64,000 nucleotides of DNA from a bacterium (GTDB lineage Bacteria; UBA8248). The stretch covers positions 1,530,212 to 1,594,211 of the forward strand of contig OZ241875.1 in NCBI GenBank assembly GCA_965203325.1. The letters run 5' to 3'. The position numbers and the translations under genes are program-made. This document shows, piece by piece, positions 3,764 through 58,440 of this stretch; position 1 is the first letter of the stretch; every line of letters begins with the position of its first letter. The notes below the pieces were generated by a model, which saw nothing but the letters and a program-made list of their open reading frames with translations, was not told where the DNA came from and did no database searches.

Positions 3764-3798
3764 ACAAAAAAACCGGGGGGCCGAAGCCCCCCGGTTGT
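3764..3798 (-). terminator. rho-independent terminator downstream of the porin gene
   Basis: Hairpin CCGGGGGGCcgaaGCCCCCCGG followed by a T-run on the minus strand (A-run at 3766-3772 on plus). Confidence 0.6.
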
Positions 3799-3836
3799 CG
3801 TCGCGTCAGGTGAGGACGCGAGCGTCCTTCATGCTG

Positions 3837-9924: not shown

Positions 9925-11915
<1,991 letters not shown>

Positions 11916-15480: not shown

Positions 15481-15735
15481 TCTCCCCTTGAGGGTATTTG
15501 CCTACCTAGAGCGAGGAAATCAACTCCCCCCTTGAGGGGGAGTCGAGGAAGCCGAGCGTTTTTTGCGAAGGCTGACTCGGTGGGGGGACATGCCACAGAT
15601 AAAACTCCCCCCACCGAATCGCTTGCGGGCATTCGCCCTTAGCTCTTCGACTCCCCCTCAAGGGGGGAGTTGATCTTGCTCGTTCATCGGGGTTTTTTAC
15701 CCCCCTGACAAGGGGGGGTAGGGGGGGTTGGTTTT
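15481..15735. repeat. composite GC-homopolymer palindromic element, copy A
   Basis: Hairpins ACTCCCCCCTTGAGGGGGAGT and CGGTGGGGGG...CCCCCCACCG, then the family arm TACCCCCCTGACAAGGGGGGGTAGGGGGGGTT. Duplicated at 17221-17490. Confidence 0.7.
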
Positions 15736-15933
15736 CCGGCCAATCGGACAACCACGGGGGAGGGTTGTCCCTACGCCCCGCGGCGTATCGAGACGACCCG
15801 TAGGGGCGCTTCGTGAAGCGCCCGTTTCTCCGGCAAGGACCGTTCACGAATGTGGGCGGTTCGCGAACCGCCCCTACGGTGGGTGCGGCGTTTGTCCGTC
15901 ATTCCGACCAGGGATGATTTTTTCAACAATCCC

Positions 15934-16427: not shown

Positions 16428-17033
16428 ATGAACCCGCAACTGATTGCACAACCCGAAGATATCTTCCGCAAAAACGGCGGCCAGCTTCGAATGAGCGAGG
16501 CTCTCGCCGGCGGGATGACGCGCTACACCCTGTATGCGCTCAGGGACAGGGGCGTCGTCGAGCAGATCACCAGGGGCGTTTATCGGCTTCGGGAACTGCC
16601 CCCGCTCGGCAATCCGGACCTGGTGACGGTGAGCCTTCGCTTTCCCAGGGCCGTCGTTTGCCTTGTCTCTGCACTTGCCTGGCACGAGATCACGACCCAG
16701 ATACCACGTGAAGTCTCCGTGGCGGTGCCGAAAGACTCTCGGACGCCGGTGCTCGACTATCCCCCCCTCAAGGCGCACAAATTCTCCCACGAAGCATACG
16801 AACCCGGCATCGAAGTACACCTGCTCGATGGAGCACCCGTCAAGATATACAACCCGGAAAAAACCCTGGCCGACAGCTTCAAGTTCCGCAACAAGATCGG
16901 CATGGACGTGGTGCTTGAGGCGCTGAAACTCCACAAGGAGCGAAACGGGATCAACCTCGGCGAACTTATCAAGTACGCAAAGATTTGCCGGGTCGAAAAC
17001 GTGATGCGGCCTTACCTGGAGATGCTCGTATGA
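16428..17033 (+). CDS. AbiEi-family antitoxin (type IV TA system transcriptional regulator)
   Basis: N-terminal wHTH ...LRDRGVVEQITRGVYRL typical of AbiEi_4. Followed by the start of an AbiEii-like ORF. Confidence 0.6.
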   Translation: MNPQLIAQPEDIFRKNGGQLRMSEALAGGMTRYTLYALRDRGVVEQITRGVYRLRELPPLGNPDLVTVSLRFPRAVVCLVSALAWHEITTQIPREVSVAVPKDSRTPVLDYPPLKAHKFSHEAYEPGIEVHLLDGAPVKIYNPEKTLADSFKFRNKIGMDVVLEALKLHKERNGINLGELIKYAKICRVENVMRPYLEMLV

Positions 17034-17112: not shown

Positions 17113-17220
17113 AGCCGATCCCTGCAAACTGGGCCGCGTCCGGCCCATGGAACTGATCTGGATTTTCTTCACATTTTTCTCATATTGAGGCTGTCCTTGA
17201 GATCGCAGCCGTAGGGACAA

Positions 17221-17490
17221 CCCCTTGTCAGGGGGGTAGGTGGGGTACTCCCTCCACCGAGGAGAATCCTAAATTCACTCCCCCCTTTTTTGAGGGGGAG
17301 TCGATGAGGCCGAGCCTTGGCGAAGGCCGATTCGGTGGGGGGACATGCCACAGAAAAACTCCCCCCACCGGTTCGGTTTCGGGCAAAAACCCCCTCACCT
17401 CACCGACTCCCCCTCAAGGGGGGAGTTGATCTTGCTCGTCCATCGGAGTTTTCATACCCCCCTGACAAGGGGGGGTAGGGGGGGTTGGTT
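17221..17490. repeat. composite GC-homopolymer palindromic element, copy B
   Basis: Left arm CCCCTTGTCAGGGGGG, internal hairpins, right arm CCCCCCTGACAAGGGGGGGTAGGGGGGGTT. Paralogous to 15481-15735. Confidence 0.7.
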
Positions 17491-17684
17491 TTCCGGCCAA
17501 TCGGACAACCACGGGCGCCTGTCCCTACGCCCCGCGTATCGAGACGACCCGTAGGGGCGCTTCGTGAAGCGCCCGTTTCTCCGGCAAGGGCCGTTCACGA
17601 ATGGGGGCGGTTCGCGAACCGCCCCTACGGTGGGTGCGGCGTTTGTCCGTCATTCCGAGCAGGGATGATTTTTTCAACAATCCC

Positions 17685-41846: not shown

Positions 41847-41908
41847 AACGGGGCTGCTGAAAAAGCCCCCGTCGGTCGGTTTGATTTCCCCCTCACCGGT
41901 ATGAAAAG

Positions 41909-42023
41909 CACCCCCCCCCTACCCCCCCTTGTCAGGGGGGCAAGAAAAAGCAAAACCCCCTCGGCCCGGCGGGGGCGCATCGCCTTTTTATACCCCCCTG
42001 ACAAGGGGGGTAGGGGGGGGTGG
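41909..42023. repeat. dual-arm GC-homopolymer palindromic element (inverted orientation)
   Basis: CACCCCCCCCCTACCCCCCCTTGTCAGGGGGG ... TACCCCCCTGACAAGGGGGGTAGGGGGGGG with a central CCCCC/GGGGG hairpin. Confidence 0.75.
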
Positions 42024-42139
42024 TTTCAAAGAGGGAGGTCGAGGGTTCGCGCGAAAGCGGCCTTCCCGCTAAAGGCAATGTCCCCCCGACGAGGGGTTTT
42101 TCAACAACCCCGATTGCGCCGCAGGTGTGCGGCTTATGA

Positions 42140-42640
42140 TCAGGAAAATTCCTCTTTCAGGATTTCGTGGATGAACCGCTGGACGGCGAGGGGGTAGAAC
42201 CGGATGTCCGGCGTTCGGACGACGGCGGTGTCCGTGGTCTCCAGGCGCGCGAGTTCGTTCAGCACCTTTTCCACCAGAACCTCCGGGCTCCACTCGTGGT
42301 GGGTGATCTTCAGGTGCTCGTTCTCGATGTTGAAGTTGCCCGCCGCAACGGCGGGGAACGCGAACACGCGGCCGATGAGGTCGGAATCCATCATCTCGGA
42401 ATCCTCGAAAATCTCGCCGAACGTCTTCTGCGCCTCGGCGGGCGTCCACACCAGCTTGGGAGACACCAGCAGCTTGCCGGATATCTGGACCGAACCCGCC
42501 TGCTCTTCCACCTCCGGCCCCAGCACCCGGTAGCCGAGTTCGTGATAGCCCGAGACGATGCCCACGTAAGGCCGCTGGAGGATGCGTATCTCCTCGCTCA
42601 CCTGCCTGTGGAAATCGCGCTGCATGTCGTCGTCGAACAT
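42140..42640 (-). CDS. hypothetical protein
   Basis: ORF with RBS GGAGA. No family recognised by eye. Confidence 0.45.
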   Translation of the reverse strand: MFDDDMQRDFHRQVSEEIRILQRPYVGIVSGYHELGYRVLGPEVEEQAGSVQISGKLLVSPKLVWTPAEAQKTFGEIFEDSEMMDSDLIGRVFAFPAVAAGNFNIENEHLKITHHEWSPEVLVEKVLNELARLETTDTAVVRTPDIRFYPLAVQRFIHEILKEEFS

Positions 42641-42765
42641 CGAAACGTCTCCGTCAGGACCGAAAACCAAAAAAACGCAAGCAGGTGTTGATACCAAATG
42701 CCGCCGCGCCGGGTCAAACAAAACGAGACCACGGACGCGCCCCGTCTCTATTCTCTTCTTTTTCC

Positions 42766-44201
42766 TCAGGAATTGATAGCCCGCAAATCGCCTAAAATCT
42801 TCTCCGCCGCATCACCCGCAGATTTCACGCAATCGGGAATCCCGACGCCCCGGTAGGCGTTGCCGGCGAGAGCGAGACCCGGCGTTGCGCTCAGTCCATC
42901 CTCTATTCTGCCCACTTTCTCCAGGTGGCCCACCAGATAATGCGGCAGGGATTCCTCGTAGCGATAAAAGACTTTTCCTTCGGGTTCTCCCGAAATCCCC
43001 AGAATCGGGCGAAGCTCCTCGATCAGCTTGCGAGTCAACTCCTCATCCGTGAGCCCGGCCCGGGAGGCGGCCTCGCCTCCGGCGAAGGCGCGGATGAGCA
43101 CCTTGCCCTCGGGCGCTCTGCCCGCGAACTTGGTGCTCGAAAACGAACACGCGAGGAGCGTCTTGTTCTCTATCGCCGGTACGACGAAACCCATGGCGTG
43201 GAGCGGATTCGCCACCTGCTCGGCCCGGTAGACGAGGTTGAGCGTCGCCAGAGAGCCGCTCGGGATGCTCATCAACTCTGCCGAAATACCGGGCGCGGCT
43301 TTCTCCAGCATCCGCGCCGCAGCACTTGGCGGCAGGGTGACGCAGACTGCATCGGCATCTATCTCCTCTCCGTCCTCAAGACGAACGCGCCAGCTTTTTC
43401 GTTTCTTTCGAGTGATTCCGCCCGGCATCCCGTCCGAACCATAGCGCCTGAAATCTTCTCCGCCAGCGCGTCCGCCAGGGCGTCCATTCCACGCTCGAAA
43501 CTCACGAACAGGCCGTACCTCGGCCCGCTCGCCGAGACGCCCTCGCCAGTTCCTCGCTTTTGCATCCGCTTCCTGAGTCCCAGGATGAGGCTCCTGTGCT
43601 CTCGCTCTATCTCGTGAAACTGCGGCATGGTGGCTTTCAGGCTCAAATGTTCGGGGTCTGCCGAATAGATGCCCGCCACCATGGGCTGCGCCATTCTTTC
43701 CAACGCCTCGCGCCCGAAGCGCCTGCGCACGAAATCGGCCAGGGATTCATCCGCATCCCCACGCCTTCCGGGCAGGAGTACGTCCATCGCCATCCGGAGC
43801 TTGCCGAGCGGGCTGAAGACGGGACTCATCAAGAACGGACCGATTTGGTATGGCGCGAGAAGGTAATATCCCTGGGGCACGGGGAGCAGTTCGTCGCCCC
43901 GCAGGACGAAGCTGCGGCGATGGCGCTCGTTCGTGCCGATGAGTTGACTTCCGAGCCCCAGTTCCTCGCAGAGTTCGACGCCTTCGGGCTTAGATGCGAG
44001 AAAGCAGTCCGGGCCTTTTTCCATCAGGACACCGTCTGAGAACTCGGTCTCGATGACGCCGCCGAGCCGGGAAGACGCCTCGATGAGATGAATATCCAGA
44101 GAGAGATTCTGCGCCTTCGAGGCCTCAAGGAGCCGGTAACAGGCCACAAGCCCCGTAACGCCTCCGCCAAGCACGACCACCCGCCGGGTTTTTGCGGTCA
44201 A
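42766..44201 (-). pseudogene. hemY: protoporphyrinogen/coproporphyrinogen oxidase (HemY/CgoX family), interrupted by a 1-nt frameshift
   Basis: N-terminal FAD half (VVVLGGGVTGL...) in ORF 43359..44201. C-terminal half in ORF 42766..43428, one frame over. The junction lies in a T5 run at 43396-43400 (plus). Adding one A on the coding strand gives ...SLERNEKSWRVRLEDGEEIDADAV.... TTG start overlaps the hemH stop. Confidence 0.7.
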
Positions 44202-45160
44202 CTTCCGCTCTCCGCCATCTTCGCGCGCACCAACTCGGAGAGCATCCCGATAAAGGCGGGGTGCGTGCCCACCGTGGGCGCACGGTAGAAGCGAAGCCCC
44301 GCCGCTTCGGCCGCTTCGCGCGCCTCGATGTCCAAGTCGAAGAGCACCTCCACGTGATCGCATATGAAACCGACCGGGACCACCAGGACGGCCTTTGCGC
44401 CACCGGCGGCGACGCTTCCGATCACCTCCGTCACGTCCGGGCCGAGCCAGGTGCCGGGAGGAACGTCCGGGCTGCTCTGAAAGCCGACCTCGTAGCTCTC
44501 AAGACCCAGTTTTTGCGCCGCGAGAGCCGCCGTTTCCCGGAATTCCTCCTCATAAGAAGAGGCCTTGGCCATGGAAACGGGTATGGAGTGGGCCGTAAAG
44601 ATGACTCTCGCCACATCCGGGCCGTCCTCTTCGGGGAGGGCCTGCCTCATCCGATCGACGACGGCGTCGATGAAGCCCGGATGCTCGTGCCAGGGTTTTT
44701 CGAGAAATTCGACTTCGGGCGCATCTTCGCCCAACTCCTCGCGCGCTGTGGCGACGGCGCCCCGATAAGCCTCCCAGCTTATTTTCGTGCGATGAGGGGC
44801 CAATATGACGCCCAGCGCGCGCCTGAGTCCGCGCCCCCCCATCTCGGCCAGCGTCTCTTCCACGTAAGGCGTCCAGAAGCGATGGCCGGTATAGACGGGA
44901 ACGCCCGCACCCGCTTGTTCGAGCGCCATCTCGAGCGCGCCCGCCTGTTTCTGGGAGAAAAACGTGAAGGGCGATACGCCGCCGAAGTATTCATAGTGCG
45001 CGGCCACCTCCCGGATGCGCTCGGGGCCGCCCGACCTCTGGCCCACGATGCCCTCCACGTAGCAATACGCCTCGCCCGGACATTCCTCGTAGCGGCGGCA
45101 GCAGCCCCGCGTGGGGCCGCCGAAGCCGATCATGATGATGGAATCGAACTTGTCCTTCAT
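44198..45160 (-). CDS. hemH: ferrochelatase
   Basis: MKDKFDSIIMIGFGGP... ferrochelatase signature. ATG overlaps the hemE stop (ATGA). RBS GGAGG. Confidence 0.9.
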   Translation of the reverse strand: MKDKFDSIIMIGFGGPTRGCCRRYEECPGEAYCYVEGIVGQRSGGPERIREVAAHYEYFGGVSPFTFFSQKQAGALEMALEQAGAGVPVYTGHRFWTPYVEETLAEMGGRGLRRALGVILAPHRTKISWEAYRGAVATAREELGEDAPEVEFLEKPWHEHPGFIDAVVDRMRQALPEEDGPDVARVIFTAHSIPVSMAKASSYEEEFRETAALAAQKLGLESYEVGFQSSPDVPPGTWLGPDVTEVIGSVAAGGAKAVLVVPVGFICDHVEVLFDLDIEAREAAEAAGLRFYRAPTVGTHPAFIGMLSELVRAKMAESGS

Positions 45161-46221
45161 TCGGCCTCCGCTTCCCATTCCTGAACGAACCCGATGAGTC
45201 TCTTGACGTTCTCGACCGGCGTGCCCGGCAATATCCCGTGTCCCAGGTTGAATATGTGGCCCGGACGCGCAGCCCCCTGCCGCAGGACATCCTCCGTTCG
45301 CTCATAGATACGCTCAGGCGCCGCGAACAGGACGCACGGGTCGAGGTTCCCTTGAACGCCCATATCGCCCAGCCGCTCCCTGGCGTCGGCCAGTTCCACG
45401 CGGAAATCCACCCCCGCCACGTCGCCGCCCGCCCCTGCGAACGCTTCCAGATAGGGCGCGGTTCCCGTGCCGAAGTGGATGACGGGCGCGCCCTTTTCGA
45501 TTCCCGCGATCAGCGCGCGGCTGTGCGGCAGGACGAACTCCCGGAAATCAGCGGGCGAGAGGCAACCCACCCAGCTGTCGAAAATCTGCACCGCCTGCGC
45601 GCCCGCGCGTATCTGTTCGTTCAGGTAGATGGTCAACCCGCGCACGAGCTTTTCCATCAGCGCGTGCCACGCGCCCGAATCGGCGTACATGAACCTCTTG
45701 GTGTTCTCGAAATTGCGCGAGCCGCCGCCTTCGATCATATAAGACGCGAGCGTGAAGGGCGCGCCGCAGAAGCCGATGAGCGGAAGGGCGGGGTTCATCT
45801 GCTCCCTGGTTTTCCGGACCGCATCGAAGACAAAGCCAAGGCTCTCGCGCGGCTCCGCCTCCCGCAGGCGCTCCACGTCCGAAGCCTCCCGGACCGGGTT
45901 GTGGAGAACGGGGCCTCCCTCCGGGTATTCCAGGTCCATGCCCATGGGTTGCAAGATGAGCAGAATGTCCGAGAACAGGATGGCTGCGTCCGCCCCGATG
46001 GCGTCGAGCGCCGTTACGGCGACCTCGGCGGCCAGATCGGGCGTGCGGCAAAGCTCGATGAAGGAGACCTTCTCGCGAACGGCGCGGTACTCGCGCATGT
46101 ACCTGCCCGCCTGACGCATGAGCCAGACGGGCGTCCTCGCGTTGGGAAGCCCCCGGCAGGCGCGCATGAAGGCGGAATCCGCATACGCGGGCGCGTTTTC
46201 CACTGCTGGATGCGCCGACAT
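45157..46221 (-). CDS. hemE: uroporphyrinogen decarboxylase
   Basis: PVWLMRQAGRYMREY signature. Start at MSAHP with RBS AAGGAGGGG. Confidence 0.9.
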   Translation of the reverse strand: MSAHPAVENAPAYADSAFMRACRGLPNARTPVWLMRQAGRYMREYRAVREKVSFIELCRTPDLAAEVAVTALDAIGADAAILFSDILLILQPMGMDLEYPEGGPVLHNPVREASDVERLREAEPRESLGFVFDAVRKTREQMNPALPLIGFCGAPFTLASYMIEGGGSRNFENTKRFMYADSGAWHALMEKLVRGLTIYLNEQIRAGAQAVQIFDSWVGCLSPADFREFVLPHSRALIAGIEKGAPVIHFGTGTAPYLEAFAGAGGDVAGVDFRVELADARERLGDMGVQGNLDPCVLFAAPERIYERTEDVLRQGAARPGHIFNLGHGILPGTPVENVKRLIGFVQEWEAEAE

Positions 46222-46416
46222 GAACCCCTCCTTCAAAACATGTGAGAACCCGTCCTTCCGGGCGGGCCGGATGAAGCCAGTCTAATCCAAAAACCGCGCC
46301 CTCGCCTATCGGGCGAGCCGAATTGACACAAGAGAATGAATGCCGCTCGCTGGACAACGCCGGTTCAGGTAGGATAATAAAGATTCTTGATTTCGGGCAT
46401 CACGCCCCGACACCCC

Positions 46417-46491
46417 GGCGCCATAGCCAAGTGGTAAGGCAGAGGACTGCAAATCCTTTATTCCCCGGTTCGAATCCGGGTGGCGCCTCCA
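46417..46491 (+). tRNA. tRNA-Cys (GCA)
   Basis: Acceptor stem GGCGCCA/TGGCGCC, anticodon loop CTGCAAA, T-arm GGTTCGAATCC, CCA encoded. Confidence 0.9.
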
Positions 46492-46516
46492 ATATCCCCC
46501 GGAGGGAGACGATTCG

Positions 46517-47149
46517 ATGGAGCAGACGACAGCGTCCAGGATAGAAACGAAAGAAGAGCTTCGCGAGTTCTACGGCCCGGCCAACGAGCGCAGCGTCAAG
46601 AAGCAGATGGCGAAGCTCGACGAGCACGCCAGGAATTTCATCGCGCTCTCTCCTTTCATGGTCATCTCCTCCGCCACGCCGGACGGCGCGGACGCATCTC
46701 CTAAAGGGGATCCGCCCGGATTCGTCAAGGTGATCGACGAGAGCACGCTGATCATCCCCGACAGGCCGGGCAACAACCGCGTCGACACCATGAGCAACAT
46801 CGTGGAGAACAACCACGTCGGCCTCCTCTTCCTCGTACCCGGCATGTGCGAGACGCTGCGCGTGAACGGGCGGGCGCGCATCACGACGGACCCCGAAGTC
46901 CTCGAACCGCACTCGGTGAAGGGCCGGCCCCCCCGGTCGGCGATGATCGTCGACGTGGACGACGTGTATCTCCACTGCGGAAAGGCGCTCATCCGCGCGG
47001 ACCTCTGGAACGCGGAAAAACACATCGAGAGAAAGTCTTTTCCCTCGATGGGCCAGATGCTCTCCGATCAGATAGCCGAAGACGGCTACGGCGACGGAGA
47101 GGAAATGGACAAGGGCATCCAGGAGAGGTACAAGACGGGCCTCTATTAG
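46517..47149 (+). CDS. pyridoxamine 5'-phosphate oxidase family FMN/F420-binding protein
   Basis: PNPOx-like split-barrel motifs. RBS GGAGGGAG. Confidence 0.7.
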   Translation: MEQTTASRIETKEELREFYGPANERSVKKQMAKLDEHARNFIALSPFMVISSATPDGADASPKGDPPGFVKVIDESTLIIPDRPGNNRVDTMSNIVENNHVGLLFLVPGMCETLRVNGRARITTDPEVLEPHSVKGRPPRSAMIVDVDDVYLHCGKALIRADLWNAEKHIERKSFPSMGQMLSDQIAEDGYGDGEEMDKGIQERYKTGLY

Positions 47150-47423
47150 CCACAAGCAGGGCGGACGCACGGATCCGCCTCTGATAAAACATTGCGTTTT
47201 CGTTTCTCCGTAGGGGCGCTTCGCGAAGCGCCCAACCCCTCCGACAAGGGGCTGTTGAAATAGTCCTCTTCAGTTGGTATTCACCACCGTCGTCATTCCG
47301 GCAATCAATGCCGACTGAGGAGGGAGGGATTGCCCGGAATCCATTTTCAAGCAGAATGACAATACGCCGGCTTTTCATCTCCCCGTCATTGGCGGGAACC
47401 AATCAGAAAATAAAATACAAAAC

Positions 47424-47538
47424 CAACCCCCCCCTACCCCCCCTTGTCAGGGGGGTATGAAAAGGCGACGGCCGCCACCGGTAGAGGGGCATTTGTTTTT
47501 TCTTGCCCCCCTGACAAGGGGGGGTAGGGGGGGTTGCC
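47424..47538. repeat. dual-arm GC-homopolymer palindromic element
   Basis: ACCCCCCCCCTACCCCCCCTTGTCAGGGGGG ... CCCCCCTGACAAGGGGGGGTAGGGGGGGTTGCC. Downstream module with TTTTTCAACAA to ~47590. Confidence 0.75.
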
Positions 47539-47591
47539 TTTATCCCCTGAGGAGGGGGACTTTTTCAACAACTCCCCTCAGTCGGGACTGA

Positions 47592-49508
47592 CTAATGCGT
47601 TTCTCTTAGATAAACGACCGCAAGCGGCGGCAGTGTGATCTCTATCGAATAGGGCTGGTCATTCAGGGGCGCCGCCGCCGCGTGGCAGCCATCCGGATTT
47701 CCCATACCGCTGCCCCCGTAGGTTTCCGCATCGCTGTTCAGCACCTCGATCCAATCGCCGTCGGCGGGAACGCCCATCCGGTAGTGCATCCGGGGCACGG
47801 GCGTCAGGTTCGCCGCCACGAGCAGCATGGGCTCATCCTCCGTGGCGATCCGCACGAACCCCAGCACACTGTCATCGGCCGCATCCGCCGCCACCCACTT
47901 GAAGCCGCTCGGGTCGTAATCCCTCCGGAACAGGGCGCGCTCCTGATGGTACAAGGCGTTCAGGTCGCGCACCCACTTCATCAGCCCCGCCCTCAGCGGC
48001 TCCTGGGTCAAATCCCAGTCGAGCGCGCCGTCGTGGTTCCATTCGCGCCACTGGCCGAATTCACCGCCCATGAAGAGGAGCTTCTTGCCGGGCTGGGCGA
48101 ACATCAGCCCGTAGAGCGCGCGAAGGTTCGCGAATTTCCGTCCGTTATCTCCCGGCATCTTCCCGAGCAGGGAACTCTTGCCGTGCACCACCTCGTCGTG
48201 GGAGAGCGGCAGCACGAAATTCTCGTTATAGGCATAGAGCATCCGGAACGTGAGCAGTTTGTGATGAAATTTCCGGTGGACGGGGTCTTTTTTCATGTAC
48301 GCGAGCGAGTCGTGCATCCAGCCCATGTCCCACTTCATGCCGAAACCCAGGCCCCCCGTATCCACGGGTCTCGATACCATCGGCCAGGCGGTCGATTCTT
48401 CCGCGATGGTCTGCACGTCGGGAAACCGGCGATAGACCTCGGTGTTCAGCCGCCTGAGGAAAGAAATGGCATCGAGATTCTCCCGGCCCCCCTCTTCGTT
48501 GGGAAGCCACTCGCCCTCTTTCCTCGAATAATCGAGATAGAGCATCGAGGCCACGCCGTCGACGCGCAGCCCGTCGGCGTGGAAAATTTCGAGCCAGTAC
48601 AGGGCGCTGTTTATCAGGAAGGCGGCGACTTCGTTACGCCCGTAATTGAAGATGTGGCTTTGCCAGTCGGGATGAAACCCCCGCCGGGGGTCGGCGTGCT
48701 CGAAGAGATGGGTCCCGTCGAAAAAGCCCAGCCCGTGCCCGTCCGTGGGAAAGTGCGAGGGCACCCAGTCGAGTATCACGCCCAGGCCGCGCTGGTGGAG
48801 ATAATCGATGAGATACATCAAGTCCTGAGGCGTCCCGAAGCGGCTCGTGGGCGAGAAGTAACCCGTGATCTGATATCCCCATGAGCCGTTGAAGGGGTGT
48901 TCCATCACCGGGAGAAACTCGACGTGGGTGAACCCCATGTGGAGCATGTGCTCGGCGAGTTGGGGGGCGAGTTCCCGGTAGGTGAGCGGGCGATCTTCTT
49001 CATGCGGCGCCCGTCTCCAGGAGCCGATATGAAGCTCATAGATGGAGATGGGGGCTTCGCGGCCGTTGCACGCTCCCCGGCACTCCATCCAGTTTCCATC
49101 CCCCCATTCGTAGTCGAGGTCCCAGACGACCGAGCCGCTCTTGGGAGGAACCTCGCTGTAGAACCCGAAAGGATCCGCCTTTTCCACGCGGTAATCGCCG
49201 AACTGCGAATGAATCCGGTATTTGTAGACCTCACCCGTCCCCACGCCCGGGATGAACCCCGCCCATATTCCCGAGCTTTCCACCGGAGCCAGCGCGTGGC
49301 TCTCCTCGTCCCAGCCGTTGAAATCCCCGATGACGCTCACCGAATCCGCATTCGGCGCCCATACGGCGAAGTGAACGCCCTCCTCCCCGTCCACCGTCAT
49401 CGGATGCGCGCCCATTTTTTCGTACAAGGTGAAGTGCGAGCCCTGGTTGAACAGGTAAATGTCGTAATCCGTGATGTAGGAAAGCGCGGGGTAGCGGACG
49501 ACGCTCAT
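47592..49508 (-). CDS. glgB: 1,4-alpha-glucan branching enzyme
   Basis: GH13_9 signatures throughout. ATG overlaps the glgX stop. Confidence 0.95.
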   Translation of the reverse strand: MSVVRYPALSYITDYDIYLFNQGSHFTLYEKMGAHPMTVDGEEGVHFAVWAPNADSVSVIGDFNGWDEESHALAPVESSGIWAGFIPGVGTGEVYKYRIHSQFGDYRVEKADPFGFYSEVPPKSGSVVWDLDYEWGDGNWMECRGACNGREAPISIYELHIGSWRRAPHEEDRPLTYRELAPQLAEHMLHMGFTHVEFLPVMEHPFNGSWGYQITGYFSPTSRFGTPQDLMYLIDYLHQRGLGVILDWVPSHFPTDGHGLGFFDGTHLFEHADPRRGFHPDWQSHIFNYGRNEVAAFLINSALYWLEIFHADGLRVDGVASMLYLDYSRKEGEWLPNEEGGRENLDAISFLRRLNTEVYRRFPDVQTIAEESTAWPMVSRPVDTGGLGFGMKWDMGWMHDSLAYMKKDPVHRKFHHKLLTFRMLYAYNENFVLPLSHDEVVHGKSSLLGKMPGDNGRKFANLRALYGLMFAQPGKKLLFMGGEFGQWREWNHDGALDWDLTQEPLRAGLMKWVRDLNALYHQERALFRRDYDPSGFKWVAADAADDSVLGFVRIATEDEPMLLVAANLTPVPRMHYRMGVPADGDWIEVLNSDAETYGGSGMGNPDGCHAAAAPLNDQPYSIEITLPPLAVVYLRETH

Positions 49509-51643: not shown

Positions 51644-51907
51644 CTTTCCCCCGCCTGAAAAATTTCATCCCTCACGATGCGCAAAATCGCGAGCCGTCAA
51701 ACGCATTCACCATGCGAAGGATCATCATACCCGATTTTTGTTGTGGTTTTATTACACGGACCGTCAAAAACCGGGTTGAATCGCCCTTCGCCTGTTTCAA
51801 GGCTTTTGCGGCGCCCGGCTCCGCTTCACCTTTTCCCCGGATAAGCTGTAGAATCGCCGCGTCCACCGGGAGGTCGAAACGTCGAATCCACGCCGAAGGA
51901 GAGCGCC

Positions 51908-53077
51908 TTGAAGATCATCGATATCCGCGAGACGGTGGTTCCCATTCAATCGGACCTGAGAAACGCGTTCATCGATTTTTCCCTGATGACGGTGAGCGTC
52001 GCCGCCCTCGTCACGGACGTGGTGCGCGACGGGAGGCGCGTCGTCGGCTTCGGCTTCAACTCGAACGGACGCTACGCCCAGCAGGGGCTTTTGCGCGAGC
52101 GCTTCATCCCCAGGCTCAGAGAAGCGGCGCCCGAGTCGCTGCTGAACGAGGCGGAATCGAACTTCGAGCCCGCCAGAATCTGGGACTGCATGATGAAGAA
52201 CGAAAAGCCCGGCGGGCACGGCGACCGCTCCGTCGCCGTGGGCATCATCGACATGGCGGTCTGGGACATGGTGGCCAAAATCGAGGAAAAACCGCTCTAC
52301 CGCCATCTGGCGGATACCTATCGCGACGGAGAGTGCGATGAGAAGGTATCCGTCTACGCCGCAGGCGGCTATTACTATCCGGGCAAGGACCTGAAAGCCC
52401 TCCAGAACGAGATGCGAAGCTATCTCGATCGCGGCTACACCACGGTGAAAATGAAGATAGGCGGCGAATCGCTCGACGACGATATCCGGAGAATCGAGGC
52501 GGTGCTCGAGGTCGTGGGCGAGGGCCGGAACCTGGCGGTGGACGCCAACGGGAAATTCGATCTCGAAACCGCCGTCGCCTACGCGGAGGCGCTGGCGCCC
52601 TACAATCTGCATTGGTACGAGGAGGCGGGCGACCCGCTCGATTACGCGCTTCAGGCCGAACTCGCCAAACACTACGACAACCCCATGGCGACGGGCGAGA
52701 ACCTCTTCTCCACCCAGGATGCGAGAAACCTGATCCGCTACGGGGGGATGCGGCCGGGCGTGGACATCCTGCAGTTCGACTGCGCTTTGAGCTACGGCCT
52801 GGTGGAATACCTTAGAACGCTCGATATGGCGGAGGAACACGGCTGGTCGTCCCGCTCGTTCATCCCCCACGGCGGACACCAGCTCTCGCTCAACATCGCG
52901 GGCGGGCTGGGCCTGGGAGGCAGCGAGTCCTACCCCGACGTGTTCAAGCCCTTCAACGGCTTCGCCGACTCCGTGGCGGTGGAAGACGGCTACGTCGGCT
53001 TTCCCGACCTGCCGGGCCTCGGCATCGAGGACAAGGCGGCTCTCAAGGACGTGCTGAGGGAGTTGTCTGAAACTTGA
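51908..53077 (+). CDS. enolase superfamily protein (mandelate racemase/muconate lactonizing enzyme family)
   Basis: KMKIGG, LAVDANGKFD, ATGENLF metal-ligand motifs. TTG start with RBS GAAGGAGAG. Confidence 0.8.
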   Translation: MKIIDIRETVVPIQSDLRNAFIDFSLMTVSVAALVTDVVRDGRRVVGFGFNSNGRYAQQGLLRERFIPRLREAAPESLLNEAESNFEPARIWDCMMKNEKPGGHGDRSVAVGIIDMAVWDMVAKIEEKPLYRHLADTYRDGECDEKVSVYAAGGYYYPGKDLKALQNEMRSYLDRGYTTVKMKIGGESLDDDIRRIEAVLEVVGEGRNLAVDANGKFDLETAVAYAEALAPYNLHWYEEAGDPLDYALQAELAKHYDNPMATGENLFSTQDARNLIRYGGMRPGVDILQFDCALSYGLVEYLRTLDMAEEHGWSSRSFIPHGGHQLSLNIAGGLGLGGSESYPDVFKPFNGFADSVAVEDGYVGFPDLPGLGIEDKAALKDVLRELSET

Positions 53078-53094
53078 ACCCGGGCATCACCTCT

Positions 53095-54399
53095 TCACGA
53101 CACACGAAGCGCGACGCGGTGCATCGTGTTGTTGAGGTATCCCCTCGGGTTCCAGTCGATGGCGTGGGGCTGCATCACCCCCGCGCTGTCCGTCGCCCGC
53201 GCCCAGATCTCGTAGTACCCGGCTTCGGGCAGCCTTACGTCGGCGCGGAAGTTCTGCCAGGCGCCGTCGTTCACGGGGGCGTCCAGCGCAGCCGGCCTCC
53301 AGGTCGCGCCGAAGTCATGGGAGAGGTCGACCGCCGCGACCGTCCGGTCTCCCGACCAGGCATGGCCGCGCACCTCTACGGCGCGCCCCGCCGCCGCTCC
53401 GTTCGCGGGGTGGGTGATCAGCGATTTGACGGGCATCCGCTCGATGATGACGAAATCTTTCTCCTCGACCTTCTCGCCCGGCTCGATCCTGTATCGCGGC
53501 ACGCGGTAGGAGGCGCCGGTCATCTTGGGGCCGTCGTGCACGACGTCGCGGAGGTAGATGCGCCGCAGCCATTTCTGCGAGCACGACCCCGGCCAGCCGG
53601 GGACGACGAGCCGCAGCGGCGCCCCGTTCATCGAATGAATGGGGCCGCCGTTCTGGCCGAAGGCGATGAGCACGCCCTCCGTCATCGCCTTGGCGACCGG
53701 CACGCCGCGCGAGATGGGCAGCCTGCCCGGCTCACCGGAGAGGTCCCCGTCTGCGCCGACGTGGGCGGTGTAGACGACGCCGGGCCGCACGCCGGCCGCC
53801 AAGAGCACGTCCTTGAGCCGTACCCCCGTCCACTGCGAACAGGCGACCGCCCCGTGGGTCCACTGGGTTCCTTTCACCGGCGGTTTGAAGAAGGCCCGCC
53901 CGTTGCCCCCGCATTCGATGACGAGGGCCTTCGTGACGACTTCGAACTTCGAGCGGAGCTCGGCGATCGACAAGGTCATGGGGCGCTCCACGAGGCCATC
54001 GACGGTGAGGGTCCAGGCGTCCGCCGACGCTTCAGCGGGCGGAACGCCGTTGTTCCGAATGAAGTGGCGCGAAGTCGGGGTGATCGGGTCGTCGAGCAGA
54101 TGCGGCGGAGTCTCGGCGTTCATCGGCCGCTCGTTCAGCAGCGTCAGGCCGTCCTTCCCGACCAGCACGCTCTCGTCAGCGAAAGCCGCCGGAATGAACC
54201 CCGCCGGCATGTTGCGGTGAAAGGGGATCGCCGCGCCCACCATCGCCGCCATGGCGGCAAGCCCTGCGCCGCGCAGAAAACCGCGCCGGTCGAGATACGA
54301 CTTTCGCCCGAAGAAGGCATAATCCGCCGCCACCGGGTCCTCGGCGAAGAATTCGTGCATATCCGGGTTTTCAGAGGATGCGTATTCCTCTTTCGGCAT
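53095..54399 (-). CDS. sulfite-oxidase-family molybdopterin oxidoreductase, Tat-exported
   Basis: Tat motif DRRGFLRGAGLAAMAAM. Moco-binding core and dimerisation domain. RBS AGGAGG. Confidence 0.8.
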   Translation of the reverse strand: MPKEEYASSENPDMHEFFAEDPVAADYAFFGRKSYLDRRGFLRGAGLAAMAAMVGAAIPFHRNMPAGFIPAAFADESVLVGKDGLTLLNERPMNAETPPHLLDDPITPTSRHFIRNNGVPPAEASADAWTLTVDGLVERPMTLSIAELRSKFEVVTKALVIECGGNGRAFFKPPVKGTQWTHGAVACSQWTGVRLKDVLLAAGVRPGVVYTAHVGADGDLSGEPGRLPISRGVPVAKAMTEGVLIAFGQNGGPIHSMNGAPLRLVVPGWPGSCSQKWLRRIYLRDVVHDGPKMTGASYRVPRYRIEPGEKVEEKDFVIIERMPVKSLITHPANGAAAGRAVEVRGHAWSGDRTVAAVDLSHDFGATWRPAALDAPVNDGAWQNFRADVRLPEAGYYEIWARATDSAGVMQPHAIDWNPRGYLNNTMHRVALRVS

Positions 54400-54447
54400 G
54401 GCGTCCTCCTCTCGCGGACAACCGCTCAGAGAAAATCGCACTGAATT

Positions 54448-55452
54448 CTAGACGAACGCGGGCATCACCTCTTCGGCGAAGCGCTCGAGCGTCCTCAGGA
54501 CGAGTTCCTGCGGCATCCCCGGCCACTGGACGCGGAACGCCATGTGGTCGACGCCCAGTTCGTCGCGGTGGCGTGCGATGTCCTCGGCCACGTCCTCCGC
54601 CGAGCCGATGAGGAACCTGTCGGAGCGAAGCTCGTCGAGCGGCATCCGTAGCGTGTCGCTGCTCGGCAGCGCCTCGCTCTGGCCCCACTTCACGTAGACG
54701 TCGTATTTCACCGCCAGATAATCCGCGCATTCGCGAAAGGCGCTCTCCCTGTCCTCGCCGATGAACATCTCCTTGATCACTGGCATCGCATCGGGCGCGC
54801 CTTTTCCTGCAGCTTCGCGCTCTTCGTGGAACATCTCCATCTGGCGCTTCAAGGTGTCGAAGCGCGCATGGGGGTTCAGGAACCAGGCCTCTCCCATCCT
54901 GGCCGCGCGCTTCACCGCGCCGTCGCCGTTCGCCGCTATCCAGATGGGCGGTCTGGGCCGTTGGATGGGCCGCATGGTGAGATTTACGTCTTCGAGTTGG
55001 ACGACCTCGCCTTCATAATCGAGCGTCCCCTCTTCGAGCAGGCGGGTGACGGCTTCGAGTTTCTCTTCGAACGCCTTCACGCGCCAGGGTTTCGTGAGGC
55101 CGAACGCGCGGTATTCGGGCTCGCGGTAGCCCAGCCCCACGCCGAGGACGAAGCGGCCCTTCGTCATGGCGTCGAGCGTGGCGACCTGTTCGGCCACGTC
55201 CACCGGGTTGTGGAGCGCGAGCAGGAGGATGCCCGTGCCGACGGTCATATCGCCCGCGTGGGCCGCCACCTGGGCGACGCTCGGCCAGGTCTGCATCATC
55301 CACACGCCCTCGGTGAGGTAGTGCTGGCCGCACCACACGCTGTGAAATCCCAGGTCTCTAATGAGGCGTACCTGCGCGAGATGCTCCTCCCAGCGCTCTG
55401 CAGGGTCGTCCCCCAGGGCGTGCTGGTTCATGACGAACATGCCGAATTTCAT
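54448..55452 (-). CDS. LLM-class flavin/F420-dependent oxidoreductase
   Basis: MKFGMFVM... luciferase-like TIM barrel. Confidence 0.8.
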   Translation of the reverse strand: MKFGMFVMNQHALGDDPAERWEEHLAQVRLIRDLGFHSVWCGQHYLTEGVWMMQTWPSVAQVAAHAGDMTVGTGILLLALHNPVDVAEQVATLDAMTKGRFVLGVGLGYREPEYRAFGLTKPWRVKAFEEKLEAVTRLLEEGTLDYEGEVVQLEDVNLTMRPIQRPRPPIWIAANGDGAVKRAARMGEAWFLNPHARFDTLKRQMEMFHEEREAAGKGAPDAMPVIKEMFIGEDRESAFRECADYLAVKYDVYVKWGQSEALPSSDTLRMPLDELRSDRFLIGSAEDVAEDIARHRDELGVDHMAFRVQWPGMPQELVLRTLERFAEEVMPAFV

Positions 55453-55476
55453 ATCATCCTCGCTCGTGTTTACGAA

Positions 55477-56382
55477 TCAATCCTTGGTTCCGAAAGCATC
55501 GGCCAGGGCGATGACTTTCTCCGCCGCCTCGACCACCGGATAGTCGATCATGCGCCCGCCGACGGAGACGCTCGCCTCCCCGCGCGCCGTCGCCTCCTCG
55601 AATGCCACCACCACCTCGCGCGCCTTTTCGACCTCCTCCTGCGTCGGCGTGAACGCGTGGTTCACGATTTCCACCTGCCTGGGGTGGATGCAGAACTTGC
55701 CGAACATGCCGAGCGCGCGGCATCTGTCCGCGCTGGCGGCGAGTCCCTCCTGATCGTCCAGGGCAATCCACACCGTGTCGAGCGGCTTTTCAAGGCCCGC
55801 GGAGCGCGAGGCCACCGCGATGCGTGAGCGTGGGTAGTCGAAGGTGAACTCATCGCGCGGCCACTCGACGTCCAGATCGTTGGTGTAATCCCCCGCCCCG
55901 AAGGCGAGCTGGAATCGCCGCTCCCCCGTATCGGCGGAGGCGATGGCGAAGGCGTCCTCCACGCCCCGGGCGTTCTCGAGGATGGCGAGCAGGTGCACGC
56001 TCCCCGCTTCACAGCCCGCCTCTCTCTCCGCGTCGCGAAGCAGCCTGTCCGCCGCGAGTATCTGCCCGGCGTTCTCCGCCTTGGGCAGCACGATTCCCCG
56101 GAGCGCCGGCCCCACGACGGCCGCGATGTCCTCTGGCCCGCAGGCGATCGAAAAACCCGTCACGTCGTCCAGAGGATTCACGCGCACGAAAACGTCCGCC
56201 CCGTCTTCTTCGGCTATCGTCTTGACCGCCGCACCGAGCGCATTCCGCGTCGATTTCTTCTCATCGGCGGGCACGGCGTCTTCCAGGTCCAGAACGACGG
56301 CGTCGGCCCCGGCCTTGCCCACCTTCGCGAGCATTCTCTCCCTGTTACCGGGAGCGAACAGAATCGTCCGGTAGAGTTTCAT
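55477..56382 (-). CDS. HpcH/HpaI aldolase / citrate lyase beta (CitE)-like lyase
   Basis: ILFAPGNR...VVLDLEDAV CitE signature. RBS AAGGAG. The upstream 260 codons of the track ORF are antisense to the amidase gene. Confidence 0.75.
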   Translation of the reverse strand: MKLYRTILFAPGNRERMLAKVGKAGADAVVLDLEDAVPADEKKSTRNALGAAVKTIAEEDGADVFVRVNPLDDVTGFSIACGPEDIAAVVGPALRGIVLPKAENAGQILAADRLLRDAEREAGCEAGSVHLLAILENARGVEDAFAIASADTGERRFQLAFGAGDYTNDLDVEWPRDEFTFDYPRSRIAVASRSAGLEKPLDTVWIALDDQEGLAASADRCRALGMFGKFCIHPRQVEIVNHAFTPTQEEVEKAREVVVAFEEATARGEASVSVGGRMIDYPVVEAAEKVIALADAFGTKD

Positions 56383-56578
56383 GAAAATCTCCTTCTCGTT
56401 CATCGTCTCAGGTGATGTGCTTTTACCCTTGATGGCGGCTCTTGCCAAGCGATAGAGACCGCCCCGGCACACTATGGGCGTCCGCCGCGCTTCGGGACGA
56501 ACGCCCGCTTTCGTTTCGGCTCCCCTGCTACCTGGAATATAATCGCGCCAAAAATAACCCCATTTACGGAGCCTCCCC

Positions 56579-58255
56579 ATGAATCCCGACGAACTGCTGC
56601 ACCGCCCCATCACGGAACTGGCCGCCCAGATCAAAAGCGGCGAAGCGAAGCCGAGCGAGGTGCTCGAGGCCCACGTCGCCAGAATCGAGGCCGCTGACCC
56701 GACCATCAACGCTTTCATCAGGACCACCTTCGAACTCGCCGGGGAACAGGCGGAGCGGCTGGATTCCGAACTCGCCGATGGAAACTTCCGGGGGCCGCTC
56801 CACGGGATTCCCATCGCGCTCAAGGACCTGTTCGACCTGGAGGGCCACCCGACCACGGCGGGCAGCCGGATTCTAGGCAAAAGCGCGGCGAACGAAACGG
56901 CGGACTGCGTGCGCAGACTTATAAATGCGGGGGCGGTCATCATCGGGAAGACGAACTTGCAGGAATTCGCGCGCGGCGGGACCGGGGCGAACAGCGCTTT
57001 CGGCCCGGCGCGAAACCCCTGGAGCCTCGAACACACGCCCGGGGGGAGCAGCAGCGGCTCGGCCGCCTGCGTGGCGGCGGGGATGGCGGCGGCCGCGCTC
57101 GGTTCCGACACGGGCGGCTCGGTGCGCCTGCCCGCATCGTTCTGTAATCTGGTGGGCATCCGCTCCACCTATGGCCGGGTGAGCCGGGCGGGGGCTGTGC
57201 CGCTGGGACTCAGCTTCGACAACGTGGGTCCCCTCGCGCGCACAGTGGAGGACGCCGCCCTCATCCTGGGAGCCATCGCAGGCCCCGACCCCAAAGACCC
57301 GACGACGGGCACGAAACCTGCGCCCGATTTCCTGGAAAGCGTGAACGAGGGCGTGGGCGGCATGACGCTGGGTGTTCCGACCAACCATTTCTGGCCGGGC
57401 GAGGACACAGAAGCGGAAGCGGTCGTCCGCGAGGCCATCGCGCGATACGAGAAGATGGGCGCGAGTCTTGTTGAGGTGGAAATCCCCTGGGCGAGGCTCG
57501 GCCAGGTCGCCTACGCCGCGACGGTGGGGCCCGAGGGTGCGGAATATCACCGCAAATTCCTCGAAAACCACCGGGACGGCTACGTCTCGCCCGGAGCGGA
57601 TTTCTTCGAGTACAGCCTGTTCATTCCGGGCTGGCGATACGTGCAGGCGCAAAAGGCCCGCACATTCTTCATCCGCCAGGCGGCGGAGGTTTTTAGACGT
57701 GTGGACGCCGTGCTCACGCCCACCGTCGCCATTGCGCCGCCCACCATCGCGGATTGCCTCGACGGCATGAAAATGTGGCCGATAGTGAGCGACAACACGG
57801 CCGCCTTCAGCACCATCGGCAACCCCGTCCTCCAGGTCCCATGCGGGTTCACGAAAGGGTGCCTGCCCGTCGGACTACAGATTGCGGGGAGATGGGGGAA
57901 TGAGGCGCGCCTGTTCCGAATCGGCAAGGCGCTGGAAGACGACAATCCGCTGTGGCAGATGAAGCCGCCCGAGGTCGACGAGCAGCCGCCTCCCGAACCA
58001 TTCCCGGGCGAAGGCTCCGCTTCCTCATCCCAAGGAGGATCGGAGTCAGAAGCCGCCGCACAGGTTCTCGCCATGGCGGAAACTATGGGCTATGCGATCG
58101 ACAGGAATAAAATATCACCGGAGGCGCTCGCACAAGGCGTTGCGAACATATTCGCGGGACTGGAAAAACTGGACGATCTCGACCTTGATGACTGCGAGCG
58201 CGCCGAAACGCTGAACCTGCTGGAGATGGACTTCGACTCGATTCCGAGGCCCTAA
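56579..58255 (+). CDS. amidase (amidase-signature family) with ~100-aa acidic C-terminal extension
   Basis: GGSSSGSAAAVA-type AS motif and the Ser-cisSer-Lys triad region. Confidence 0.85.
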   Translation: MNPDELLHRPITELAAQIKSGEAKPSEVLEAHVARIEAADPTINAFIRTTFELAGEQAERLDSELADGNFRGPLHGIPIALKDLFDLEGHPTTAGSRILGKSAANETADCVRRLINAGAVIIGKTNLQEFARGGTGANSAFGPARNPWSLEHTPGGSSSGSAACVAAGMAAAALGSDTGGSVRLPASFCNLVGIRSTYGRVSRAGAVPLGLSFDNVGPLARTVEDAALILGAIAGPDPKDPTTGTKPAPDFLESVNEGVGGMTLGVPTNHFWPGEDTEAEAVVREAIARYEKMGASLVEVEIPWARLGQVAYAATVGPEGAEYHRKFLENHRDGYVSPGADFFEYSLFIPGWRYVQAQKARTFFIRQAAEVFRRVDAVLTPTVAIAPPTIADCLDGMKMWPIVSDNTAAFSTIGNPVLQVPCGFTKGCLPVGLQIAGRWGNEARLFRIGKALEDDNPLWQMKPPEVDEQPPPEPFPGEGSASSSQGGSESEAAAQVLAMAETMGYAIDRNKISPEALAQGVANIFAGLEKLDDLDLDDCERAETLNLLEMDFDSIPRP

Positions 58256-58276
58256 GAAAACCATTGTTAAAGGAGC

Positions 58277-58392
58277 AACCCCCCCTACCCCCCCTTGTCA
58301 GGGGGGTATAAAAAGGCGATGCACCTCCACCGGGCTGAGGGAGGTTTGCTTTTTCTTGCCCCCCTGACAAGGGGGGGTAGGGGGGGTTGCCT
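58277..58392. repeat. dual-arm GC-homopolymer palindromic element
   Basis: AACCCCCCCTACCCCCCCTTGTCAGGGGGG ... CCCCCCTGACAAGGGGGGGTAGGGGGGGTTGCC. Central CCTCC/GGAGG hairpin. Downstream module to ~58435. Confidence 0.75.
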
Positions 58393-58440
58393 TAATCCCC
58401 TCAGGAGAAGGACTTTTTCAACAACCCCCTCAAGAAAGAC

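Follow-up and report, generated by a model that had tools for sequence, protein, structure and literature searches.

What are the palindromes that lie between gene ends in a 64,000-nucleotide (nt) stretch of contig OZ241875.1, and what put them there? The stretch (assembly GCA_965203325.1, positions 1,530,212 to 1,594,211; GTDB lineage Bacteria; UBA8248), which we call the window, contains several copies of an element built from runs of C and G. Short palindromic repeats are among the commonest non-coding features of bacterial genomes. A previous examination of the letters alone (the sequence-only reading) had compared this one to repetitive extragenic palindromes (REPs), bacterial interspersed mosaic elements (BIMEs) or miniature inverted-repeat transposable elements (MITEs), acting as terminators or mRNA stabilizers. 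The explanation that we favor, with a probability of about 50%, is that the repeats are a non-autonomous mobile element of ~130 nt resembling REPINs (REP doublets forming hairpins), that a nuclease of the DUF559 family acts on it in trans, and that its location at gene ends reflects insertion where insertion is tolerated. The element is multi-copy and strictly intergenic in its lineage, it is inserted at sites that are empty in relatives, and its subfamilies are shared between genomes. It belongs to a superfamily that crosses phyla and whose arms flank DUF559 genes.

The dual-arm palindromic family is real. The arm core CCCCCCTTGTCAGGGGGG (≤2 mismatches) matches the window nine times, compared with zero matches in 100 dinucleotide-preserving shuffles. 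A covariance model (CM) trained on 13 copies, with which we searched the window and related loci, recovers three full elements at 134–148 bits and two half-hits in the window (Table 1), and all three copies located by the sequence-only reading fall inside the full elements. Its length of ~115 bp describes the copies as they had been located, but the unit is ~15 nt longer: once it is aligned with copies found in other genomes, the inverted repeat can be seen to extend outward by ~8 nt per side (wkAAAAsC / GsyTTTyA), giving an imperfect palindrome of about 130 nt (125–132 nt in the MAFFT alignment). Read directly at the three sites, the 30-nt arms are AAC7-9-TA-C7-TTGTCA-G6 and its reverse complement, and each arm is itself a C6-N6-G6 hairpin, as had been claimed. 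The arms are not equivalent. One (the A arm) is always followed by TATrAAAAGGCG and the other (the B arm) by CAAGAAAAAGCA; the element is therefore oriented, and copy 1 points the opposite way to copies 2 and 3. Since the spacers are homologous between copies and the arms are inverted, the repeats do not form a CRISPR array, in agreement with the earlier view. In such arrays, direct repeats alternate at regular intervals with unique spacers, usually close to cas genes. Being <300 bp long, non-coding and bounded by terminal inverted repeats, the element has the general makeup of a MITE.

The element reaches the gathering threshold of no Rfam family and gives only sub-threshold matches resembling microRNA precursors; the families that pass in the window are one thiamine pyrophosphate (TPP) riboswitch and one tRNA. 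We found no publication containing 14-nt strings from the arm hairpin, and nothing in the literature on MITEs in sponge Nitrospinota. The repeat thus matches no described family in Rfam or, by its arm-hairpin strings, in the literature, in line with the sequence-only reading, which had not recognized it. An assembly or poly-G artefact was ruled out, because copies occur in chromosome-scale assemblies from several projects, the asymmetric arms are conserved and some insertions are in frame.

Folded from one strand, the whole element forms a single near-perfect hairpin with a stem of ~55 bp (−106.6 kcal/mol as RNA, z = −12.4; −54.9 kcal/mol as DNA, z = −10.4). Alignments of 13 and 23 copies (MAFFT and RNAalifold) return a doublet fold of the REPIN type, and 97.6% of the cells are paired across the 23 copies. 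Covariation of the spacer hairpin had been proposed from two copies. The exchange of CCTCC/GGAGG for CCCCC/GGGGG is present in the sequence, but its statistical support across the 23 copies is modest: compensatory change is limited to three pairs (7 cells) and 16 of the 34 pairs are invariant, with 0 of 500 shuffles reaching the observed score. Loop variants occur in complementary pairs between the arms (TTGTCA/TGACAA, TTGACA/TGTCAA and TTAACA/TGTTAA), which fits either selection on the hairpin or copying that templates one arm from the other. A T:G mismatch beside the G6:C6 stem is frequent, though not invariant (17 of the 23 copies), and might have some use in the mechanism.

The suggestion that the G runs could form G-quadruplexes (G4) holds for the sequence itself, as G7-TA-G7 is present in every arm and the arms supply 8 of the 16 compact G4 motifs of the window. 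Other lineages, however, do not preserve the G4-capable spacing and have G6 runs and different linkers in its place. Among the terminator-like patterns found in the 18.5 kb between 41 and 59.5 kb, arms of copies 1 and 2 are the top two, and copy 3 fails the pattern. A role of the element as a terminator or stabilizer is only suggested by such patterns; termination, RNA stabilization and formation of G4 or i-motif structures are possible by-products.

A scan of 185,579 species-representative genomes with an 18-mer gave at least 118 stretches; those listed all come from metagenome-assembled genomes (MAGs). Among the matches listed, the ~130-nt element occurs at 90–96% identity in MAGs labelled 'bacterium' or 'Nitrospinota', whose names and sample codes suggest an association with sponges. 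When the loci from these MAGs are compared with the window by megablast, the repeats alone match. The copy at 47 kb is 95.5% identical to one at locus L104 and the copy at 58 kb 94.7% identical to one at L042, whereas the window copies share 80–89% identity among themselves. Because the window copies are closer to copies in other genomes than to each other, subfamilies must be common to several genomes. A search of a viral collection gave only six matches, on which carriage by phages was ruled out.

Comparison with relatives reveals filled and empty sites at two of the three window loci. In L121 and L122 (ADH 91% and 89% identical to that of the window), the convergent genes for ADH and amidase share a 4-nt overlap and have no intergenic DNA between them, whereas in the window they are separated by 185 nt made up of the element and a TGTTGAAAAA module. 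In L123 (ADH 99% identical) this site holds the element plus extra modules, and in a strain whose ADH protein is identical, a composite module takes the place of the element and the adjacent gene is a different one. L123 also carries an N6/N4 DNA methyltransferase gene and a 242-aa open reading frame (ORF) between shikimate dehydrogenase and ADH (735-2855), where the window has nothing; this is a strain-level indel adjoining the repeat-rich junction. At the glgB/PNPOx locus the gap is 27–28 nt in L217 and L219 (glgB 91% and 82% identical) versus 442 nt in the window. In L215 (glgB 96% identical) the gap measures 476 nt and contains other modules, without a dual-arm element; the CM detects no element in any of these three relatives. 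These intergenic regions are recent nested accumulations of small mobile modules. The presence/absence polymorphism proposed as a sign of mobility is thus found, together with many copies in related genomes, so that the element is mobile or was so until recently. The likening to dispersed REP/BIME- or MITE-type palindromes is supported as well: the element behaves like non-autonomous mobile DNA of the REPIN or MITE kind. We are highly confident that the window repeats are a mobile palindromic repeat.

The repeats had been said always to lie between convergent genes. All five window sites do, but this does not hold for the family as a whole. Among the matches listed, we located 36 distinct CM copies in ~290 kb of related MAG loci: 17 lie between tandem genes, 9 between convergent and 2 between divergent genes, 8 at locus edges and none within genes, against a background of 95 tandem, 32 convergent and 33 divergent. 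Our crude gene caller scored window copy 1 as tandem; an ORF on its left with Pfam support (Fer4) makes that site convergent. The placement rule is therefore a position beside a gene 3' end, outside promoters and outside genes. Tolerated insertion explains this position at least as well as a terminator or stabilizer role would, because relatives have no intergenic DNA at these sites.

The arm design extends well beyond this lineage. Among the matches listed, the 18-mer is also found in MAGs labelled Geobacter, Gallionella, Zoogloeaceae, Poribacteria, Omnitrophota, Parcubacteria, Peribacteria, Rickettsiales and others, and 83 of the 99 non-sponge arms are preceded by an upstream A-C5-9 block with a linker of 1–6 nt, which lay outside the query. 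Compact dual-arm forms of ~85 nt occur in Geobacter, Gallionella and other MAGs; they read AAC6-TCAAT-C6TTGTCAG6, then ~10 nt, then CTCCCCTGAyAAGGGGAGG-CCGGG-AGGGGTT. Judged by its sequence, the same arm design in many phyla constitutes a superfamily. Many of its copies lie at the ends of contigs, which is to be expected of multi-copy repeats. Some are in frame within genes, for instance in Mfd genes of L097 (a Gallionella MAG) and L101 (a Rickettsiales MAG) and in a long ORF spanning contig L030. For other REP classes, too, intragenic copies in repair genes have been described (PMC3733652). The in-frame copies in the genes for Mfd, the transcription-repair coupling factor, add peptides such as PPLIRGG, FPPDKGGPRGV and SPPDKGGRGV, and in L030 a DUF559 gene and its flanking arms lie within a stop-free frame across the whole 1973-nt contig. 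Poribacteria MAGs have the arm motif close to Cas1 genes, in tandem arrays with a period of 65–67 nt (L077 1627-1852 and L050 3501-3734) and as two dispersed copies (L018 1089 and 2957). A CRISPR origin was ruled out here: the units of the L050 array are separated by identical sequence, and L018 and L050 have true CRISPR repeats that differ from the arms.

A gene encoding a DUF559 protein (PF04480) recurs beside these arms. It first surfaced through a small ORF cluster from four loci; in all, the 118 listed loci that were selected by their arms contain five DUF559 genes, four of which abut arms. In L006 (Omnitrophota), L030 and L057 (a Pseudomonadota MAG), a right-form arm, C6-TGAyAA-G6-N3-5-G6TT, stops short of a conserved (I/L)PY(N/D) by a few codons, and in L006 and L030 a left-form arm lies past the DUF559 stop codon. 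Within the window clade, the DUF559 genes of L124 and L125 have full dual-arm elements on both sides; at L126 the element upstream of the gene has diverged and contains tandem repeats at its center, and the stop is followed by a right arm only. A protein search with the window-clade DUF559 yielded 120 homologues; 72 of these contain the arm in translation, as PPDKGG[KEQ]GG[YF] directly before IPYN (for instance PPDKGGKGGY). The window-clade proteins carry PLTRGGRGGWF, which is exactly the window arm and its flank in translation. An identical 128-aa DUF559 protein occurs in two different genomic contexts in one sample.

As a control for circularity, we fetched 80 further metagenome DUF559 loci with a profile of the domain only (patterns KFTRQKP[LI] and [IV]EIDGD[ST]H). 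Arms are present within 120 nt upstream of the gene at 20 of 77 such independent loci and within 160 nt downstream at 18 of 75. The distal flanks contain 4 arms in 89.9 kb, which predicts ~0.5 per set and corresponds to a ~40-fold enrichment. Nine of the 80 loci combine a right-form arm upstream with a left-form arm downstream, and the enrichment is concentrated in the closer homologues. The association of DUF559 genes with the arms is very probably real. At one pair of DUF559 loci, the contigs (L137 and L138) are 99.9% identical and differ solely by a 63-nt segment with an arm downstream of the gene (L137 1535-1597); bordering this segment is an 11-nt direct repeat, TAAAGCAACCC, which is itself arm sequence.

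DUF559 has been placed among the PD-(D/E)XK families (PMC3424549). The DUF559 profile matches an endonuclease-like protein in the PDB (3HRL), and JGI names it very-short-patch-repair endonuclease. The acidic and His residues of the VDFYC...EIDGD.H block are invariant in our alignment and are probably catalytic. With PADLOC the protein gives a marginal match only and is not recognized as a defence component, and we found no publication linking DUF559 to repeats. In Escherichia coli K-12 (L208; NC_000913.3 1351040-1351410), the DUF559 gene ycjD is followed by the GC-rich palindromes CCCTCTCCCTGAAAGAGCGAGGGGG and CCCCTCGCCCCTCTGGGGAGAGGGTTAGGGTGAGGGG, which look like repeats of the boxC type. The ycjD locus hints that a link between DUF559 and palindromes may be broader than this superfamily.

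Other enzymes were sought around the arms. A regular expression for HUH...Y..NP, applied to all six frames of the window and of all fetched loci (~1.3 Mb), found no ORF resembling a REP-associated tyrosine transposase (RAYT), although this test is crude. All-versus-all BLASTP of ORFs within 1.5 kb of arms revealed no common transposase, only spurious repeat-encoded ORFs, ABC ATPases, Mfd and Cas1. The sole insertion sequence (IS) seen in the related MAGs belongs to the IS1182 family (DUF772 and DDE_Tnp_1_6 domains; NCBIfam IS1182, 342.7 bits) and has the ends GGGsCTGTTGAAAAACC, so that no autonomous DDE-type IS with the same ends as the element was found, as would be expected of the partner of a MITE. 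At L104 3397-4915 the IS lies inside an arm loop (CCCCCCCTTGTC / IS / TTGTCAGGGGGG) with a TTGTC duplication, and at L069 (~3973) and L075 (~6659) it lies in the loop of a sister module. A matching inverted-repeat junction is found inside an arm at L124 (~3057-4500), adjoining a gene with the same transposase domains. The hairpins serve this IS as targets, much as REPs serve IS1397. The IS was ruled out as the mobilizer, given that its ends are unlike the arms and that it lands inside them.

REPINs and their RAYT transposases are known from Pseudomonas, E. coli and other bacteria (PMC3116915, PMC3337134), where a small nuclease gene is flanked by hairpin doublets that far outnumber it (PMC3116915). 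Each REP has an unpaired GTAG or CGTC tag at one end, and GTAG-type REPs are the only ones with a known partner enzyme, the RAYT; the other classes are apparently without a dedicated transposase (PMC3733652). The window elements resemble REPINs in that two inverted short palindromes and a spacer form one hairpin, in their size (~100–130 nt), extragenic location, copy number and subfamilies, and in the small, low-copy nuclease gene flanked by repeats. They differ from REPINs in having a gene of the DUF559/Vsr fold rather than an HUH tyrosine transposase, in lacking an unpaired GTAG or CGTC tag, and in arms made of C/G homopolymer runs; moreover, their design crosses phyla, whereas REPIN families are lineage-specific.

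By analogy, the element would work as follows. Two inverted 30-nt arms, each a C6-N6-G6 hairpin, surround a variable central hairpin and could together form the ~55-bp stem as DNA or RNA. The DUF559 protein would recognize the arm, either as the hairpin with its extra G run or in duplex form, and would supply in trans the nick or cut that starts copying of the element, in the way that a RAYT does for REPINs. Gene-end location would then mirror the sites where insertion is tolerated, and the long stem with its T-rich tail may cause termination or mRNA protection as a by-product. Our proposal that DUF559 is the mobilizing enzyme is tentative. We advance with still more reserve the wider idea that a DUF559 subfamily consists of dedicated mobilizers of C-run/G-run palindromes across phyla, a second partnership of the REPIN-RAYT type with a different nuclease fold and copying mechanism. 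Several points weigh against the scheme as a whole. The window itself has no DUF559 gene, and we know of no strand-transfer activity in a nuclease of the Vsr fold. DUF559 could be a homing-type parasite of the repeats, or the arm could be a regulatory or coding part of the DUF559 gene. No clean target-site duplication is definable, because the insertions are nested multi-module blocks, around which only vague TTAG/CTAA-like repeats are seen at two loci. The gene calls behind the placement counts are crude (ORFs filtered on GC content at third codon positions), and the search for RAYT-like ORFs covered only the window and the fetched loci, so that a RAYT or another transposase may be encoded elsewhere in these genomes.

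The doubt about a parasite can be developed into a full alternative, in which DUF559 is a passenger or homing-type parasite that targets the palindromes or settles by them while another, unsampled enzyme or recombination moves them. Vsr-related nucleases do act as homing endonucleases (the I-Bth0305I family), the DUF559 gene is external to the elements, placed between one right arm and the left arm that comes next rather than within the terminal-repeat pair of a short element, and the repeats are clearly insertion targets of other mobile DNA, as the IS in L104, L069 and L075 and the junction in L124 attest. Yet throughout most of the DUF559 subfamily and across phyla the position of the arm is fixed at two codons before IPYN, and arm subtypes travel with the gene. 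Both features point to one co-inherited unit and not to repeated independent settling, and we rate the passenger explanation as unlikely. If instead the elements were classical REPINs moved by a RAYT encoded elsewhere in the genome, their doublet hairpins, extragenic location and many copies would fit the definition (PMC3116915), and GTAG is indeed present in the arms. But this GTAG lies between two G runs (G7-TA-G7), base-paired in the long hairpin, and is replaced in relatives by ATTGA, CTA, TTG and others; it is therefore not the unpaired tag of PMC3733652, and the elements fail to qualify as REPs on that count. With neither an HUH...Y ORF in the window or fetched loci nor a recurrent transposase neighbor in the ORF clustering, we consider a RAYT partner improbable.

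Movement in trans by a DDE transposase, for instance that of the IS1182-family IS of the same genomes, would make the element a MITE. Long terminal inverted repeats make up most of it, its outer flank TTGAAAAsC is similar to the core of the IS end, and IS-end-like TGTTGAAAAA motifs stand beside all three window copies. The resemblance of flank and IS end, however, covers only 8–9 nt, no IS with arms as its ends and no target duplication of fixed length were found, and the use of arm loops as targets (the TTGTC duplication at L104) fits a predator better than a partner, which makes this origin quite improbable. Finally, the element could be a structure selected by the host, such as a bidirectional terminator, an mRNA 3' stabilizer or a G4/i-motif signal, whose spread reflects its function. 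Its bias toward 3' ends and depletion from divergent regions, the rank of two copies' arms as the best terminator-like patterns in 18.5 kb, the G7-TA-G7 in every arm and the maintained complementarity of the stem all agree with such a function. Against it, orthologous gene pairs in relatives work without any intergenic DNA, close strains have different modules at the same site, superfamily copies lie in frame within genes, and the G4-capable spacing is lost in other lineages. We give a host function very little credence as the cause of the spread, and return to a REPIN-like mobile element served by DUF559 as the explanation that we prefer.

Other known repeats provide further comparisons. The BIMEs of enterobacteria and the rhizobial intergenic mosaic elements (RIMEs) are mosaic intergenic elements. 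The window palindromes likewise occur in mosaics, with the modules TGTTGAAAAA, ACTCCCCC-TCAA-GGGGGGAGT and CCGTAGGGGCGCTTCG, mostly past gene 3' ends, and are targeted by specific IS, but no sequence relationship was found; we know of no binding of integration host factor, gyrase or Pol I to these elements. MITEs such as Correia/NEMIS, ERIC, RUP and Nezha are small, non-coding, dispersed and polymorphic between strains and have long terminal inverted repeats, all of which applies to the present element; it differs from them in that neither a cognate DDE-transposase IS with the same ends nor a defined target-site duplication was found. Rickettsia palindromic elements (RPEs) are palindromes inserted in frame in protein-coding genes. 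Superfamily members in Mfd and in the long ORF of L030, with short peptides such as PPDKGG and PLTRGG, recall RPEs by their placement, whereas the copies of the window lineage are all intergenic (0 of 36 in genes). Like Rho-independent terminators, the elements have a T-rich tail behind a GC-rich stem, and this on both strands (GGGGGGGTTGGTTTTCA and GGGGGGGTTGCCTTTAT), but the ~55-bp stem is far longer than needed, the T-tracts are weak and the element is dispensable at orthologous sites. On sequence grounds, the window elements appear to be a new family of REPIN-like palindromic mobile repeats, and the proposed DUF559 partnership a variant of the theme of repeat plus nuclease.

The analysis thus finds one repeat design in Nitrospinota-like sponge MAGs, Poribacteria, Geobacter, Gallionella, Omnitrophota, groups of the candidate phyla radiation and Rickettsiales MAGs, as well as a physical link of that design with DUF559 genes that is specific and statistically strong. 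Should this link be functional, it would give the large DUF559 domain family its first role, would be a new route for the intragenomic spread of hairpin DNA, and would explain odd N-terminal peptides (PPDKGGKGGY and others) in database proteins. In practical terms, the copies at contig ends fit repeats that break metagenome assemblies, the repeats seed spurious ORFs, and they are landing pads for an IS1182-family element.

Table 1. Palindromic elements, their arms and adjoining modules in the 64-kb window.
Feature	Position	Strand	CM score (bits)	Details
Full element, copy 3	58267..58398	+	147.6	A-arm to B-arm orientation; amidase stop 58255 and ADH stop 58441 on either side; long hairpin, −106.6 kcal/mol
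Copy 3, left arm	58277..58306	+		AAC7-TA-C7-TTGTCA-G6
Copy 3, right arm	58359..58388	+		C6-TGACAA-G7-TA-G7-TT
Full element, copy 2	47416..47545	+	134.4	glgB stop 47 nt away
Copy 2, left arm	47425..47455	+		
Copy 2, right arm	47506..47535	+		
Full element, copy 1	41900..42032	-	141.3	Inverted relative to copies 2 and 3; 54 nt past stop of 4Fe-4S protein ORF (Pfam)
Copy 1, arm on B-arm side	41910..41940	+		AC9-TA-C7-TTGTCA-G6
Copy 1, arm on A-arm side	41993..42021	+		C6-TGACAA-G6-TA-G8-T
Half copy	15630..15739	+	29.7	Canonical right arm 15700-15730, fused to module ACTCCCCC-TCAA-GGGGGGAGT
Half copy, duplicate of that at 15.6 kb	17386..17496	+	36.4	Canonical arm 17457-17487
Degenerate left arm	17219-17236			Beside second half copy
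GGGGGTTGTTGAAAAAG module with small hairpin	58394..58428	-		Directly past ADH stop; resembles IS1182-type inverted-repeat end; outside palindrome proper
GGGGGTTGTTGAAAAAG module	47541..47575	-		Past glgB stop
GGGGGTTGTTGAAAAAG module	42077..42111	-		Past stop of ORF 42140-42721

The sites at 15.5 and 17.3 kb had been taken for longer, composite versions of the element. They are not longer forms: each has one canonical arm and gives a CM half-hit of 30–36 bits, and the remainder is a different palindromic module, in which pairs of ACTCCCCC-TTGA/TCAA-GGGGGAGT surround CGGTGGGGGG...CCCCCCACCG. Each composite is a copy of the other, and they lie 1751 nt apart inside a segmental duplication (15636-16347 and 17392-18098; 98% identity over 300 nt) that includes the 3' end of a gene for an MMPL-family transporter and the repeats downstream of it. 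The duplication brackets an AbiEi_4 antitoxin-like gene (16428-17033), for which an AbiEii partner is not evident.

Further small repeats populate the same intergenic regions. The motif GGGG(n)TTGTTGAAAAA occurs five times, always on the minus strand (58414-58423, 47561-47570, 42097-42106, 17670-17679 and 15919-15928) and each time directly 3' of a minus-strand gene's stop codon. The motif is similar to the end of the IS1182-family IS of related MAGs, and its copies have the appearance of solo ends of an IS or MITE. A short palindromic repeat of a third kind, CCGTAGGGGCGCTTCG(T/C)GAAGCGCCC, is found at 15798-15823, 17549-17574 and 47208-47233. Directly to the left of copy 2 lies a dispersed repeat of ~135 nt (47291-47426) with matches in L080 (94.6%) and L081 (98%), which are loci of other MAGs; the ORF that overlaps it (46989-47402) is probably spurious. 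Elsewhere in the window, the TPP riboswitch (9934-10024, plus strand, 72.1 bits) stands immediately 5' of a 621-aa ORF (10050-11915), and a single tRNA-Cys (GCA) gene occupies 46417-46491 on the plus strand, with a promoter-like site at 46351-46378.

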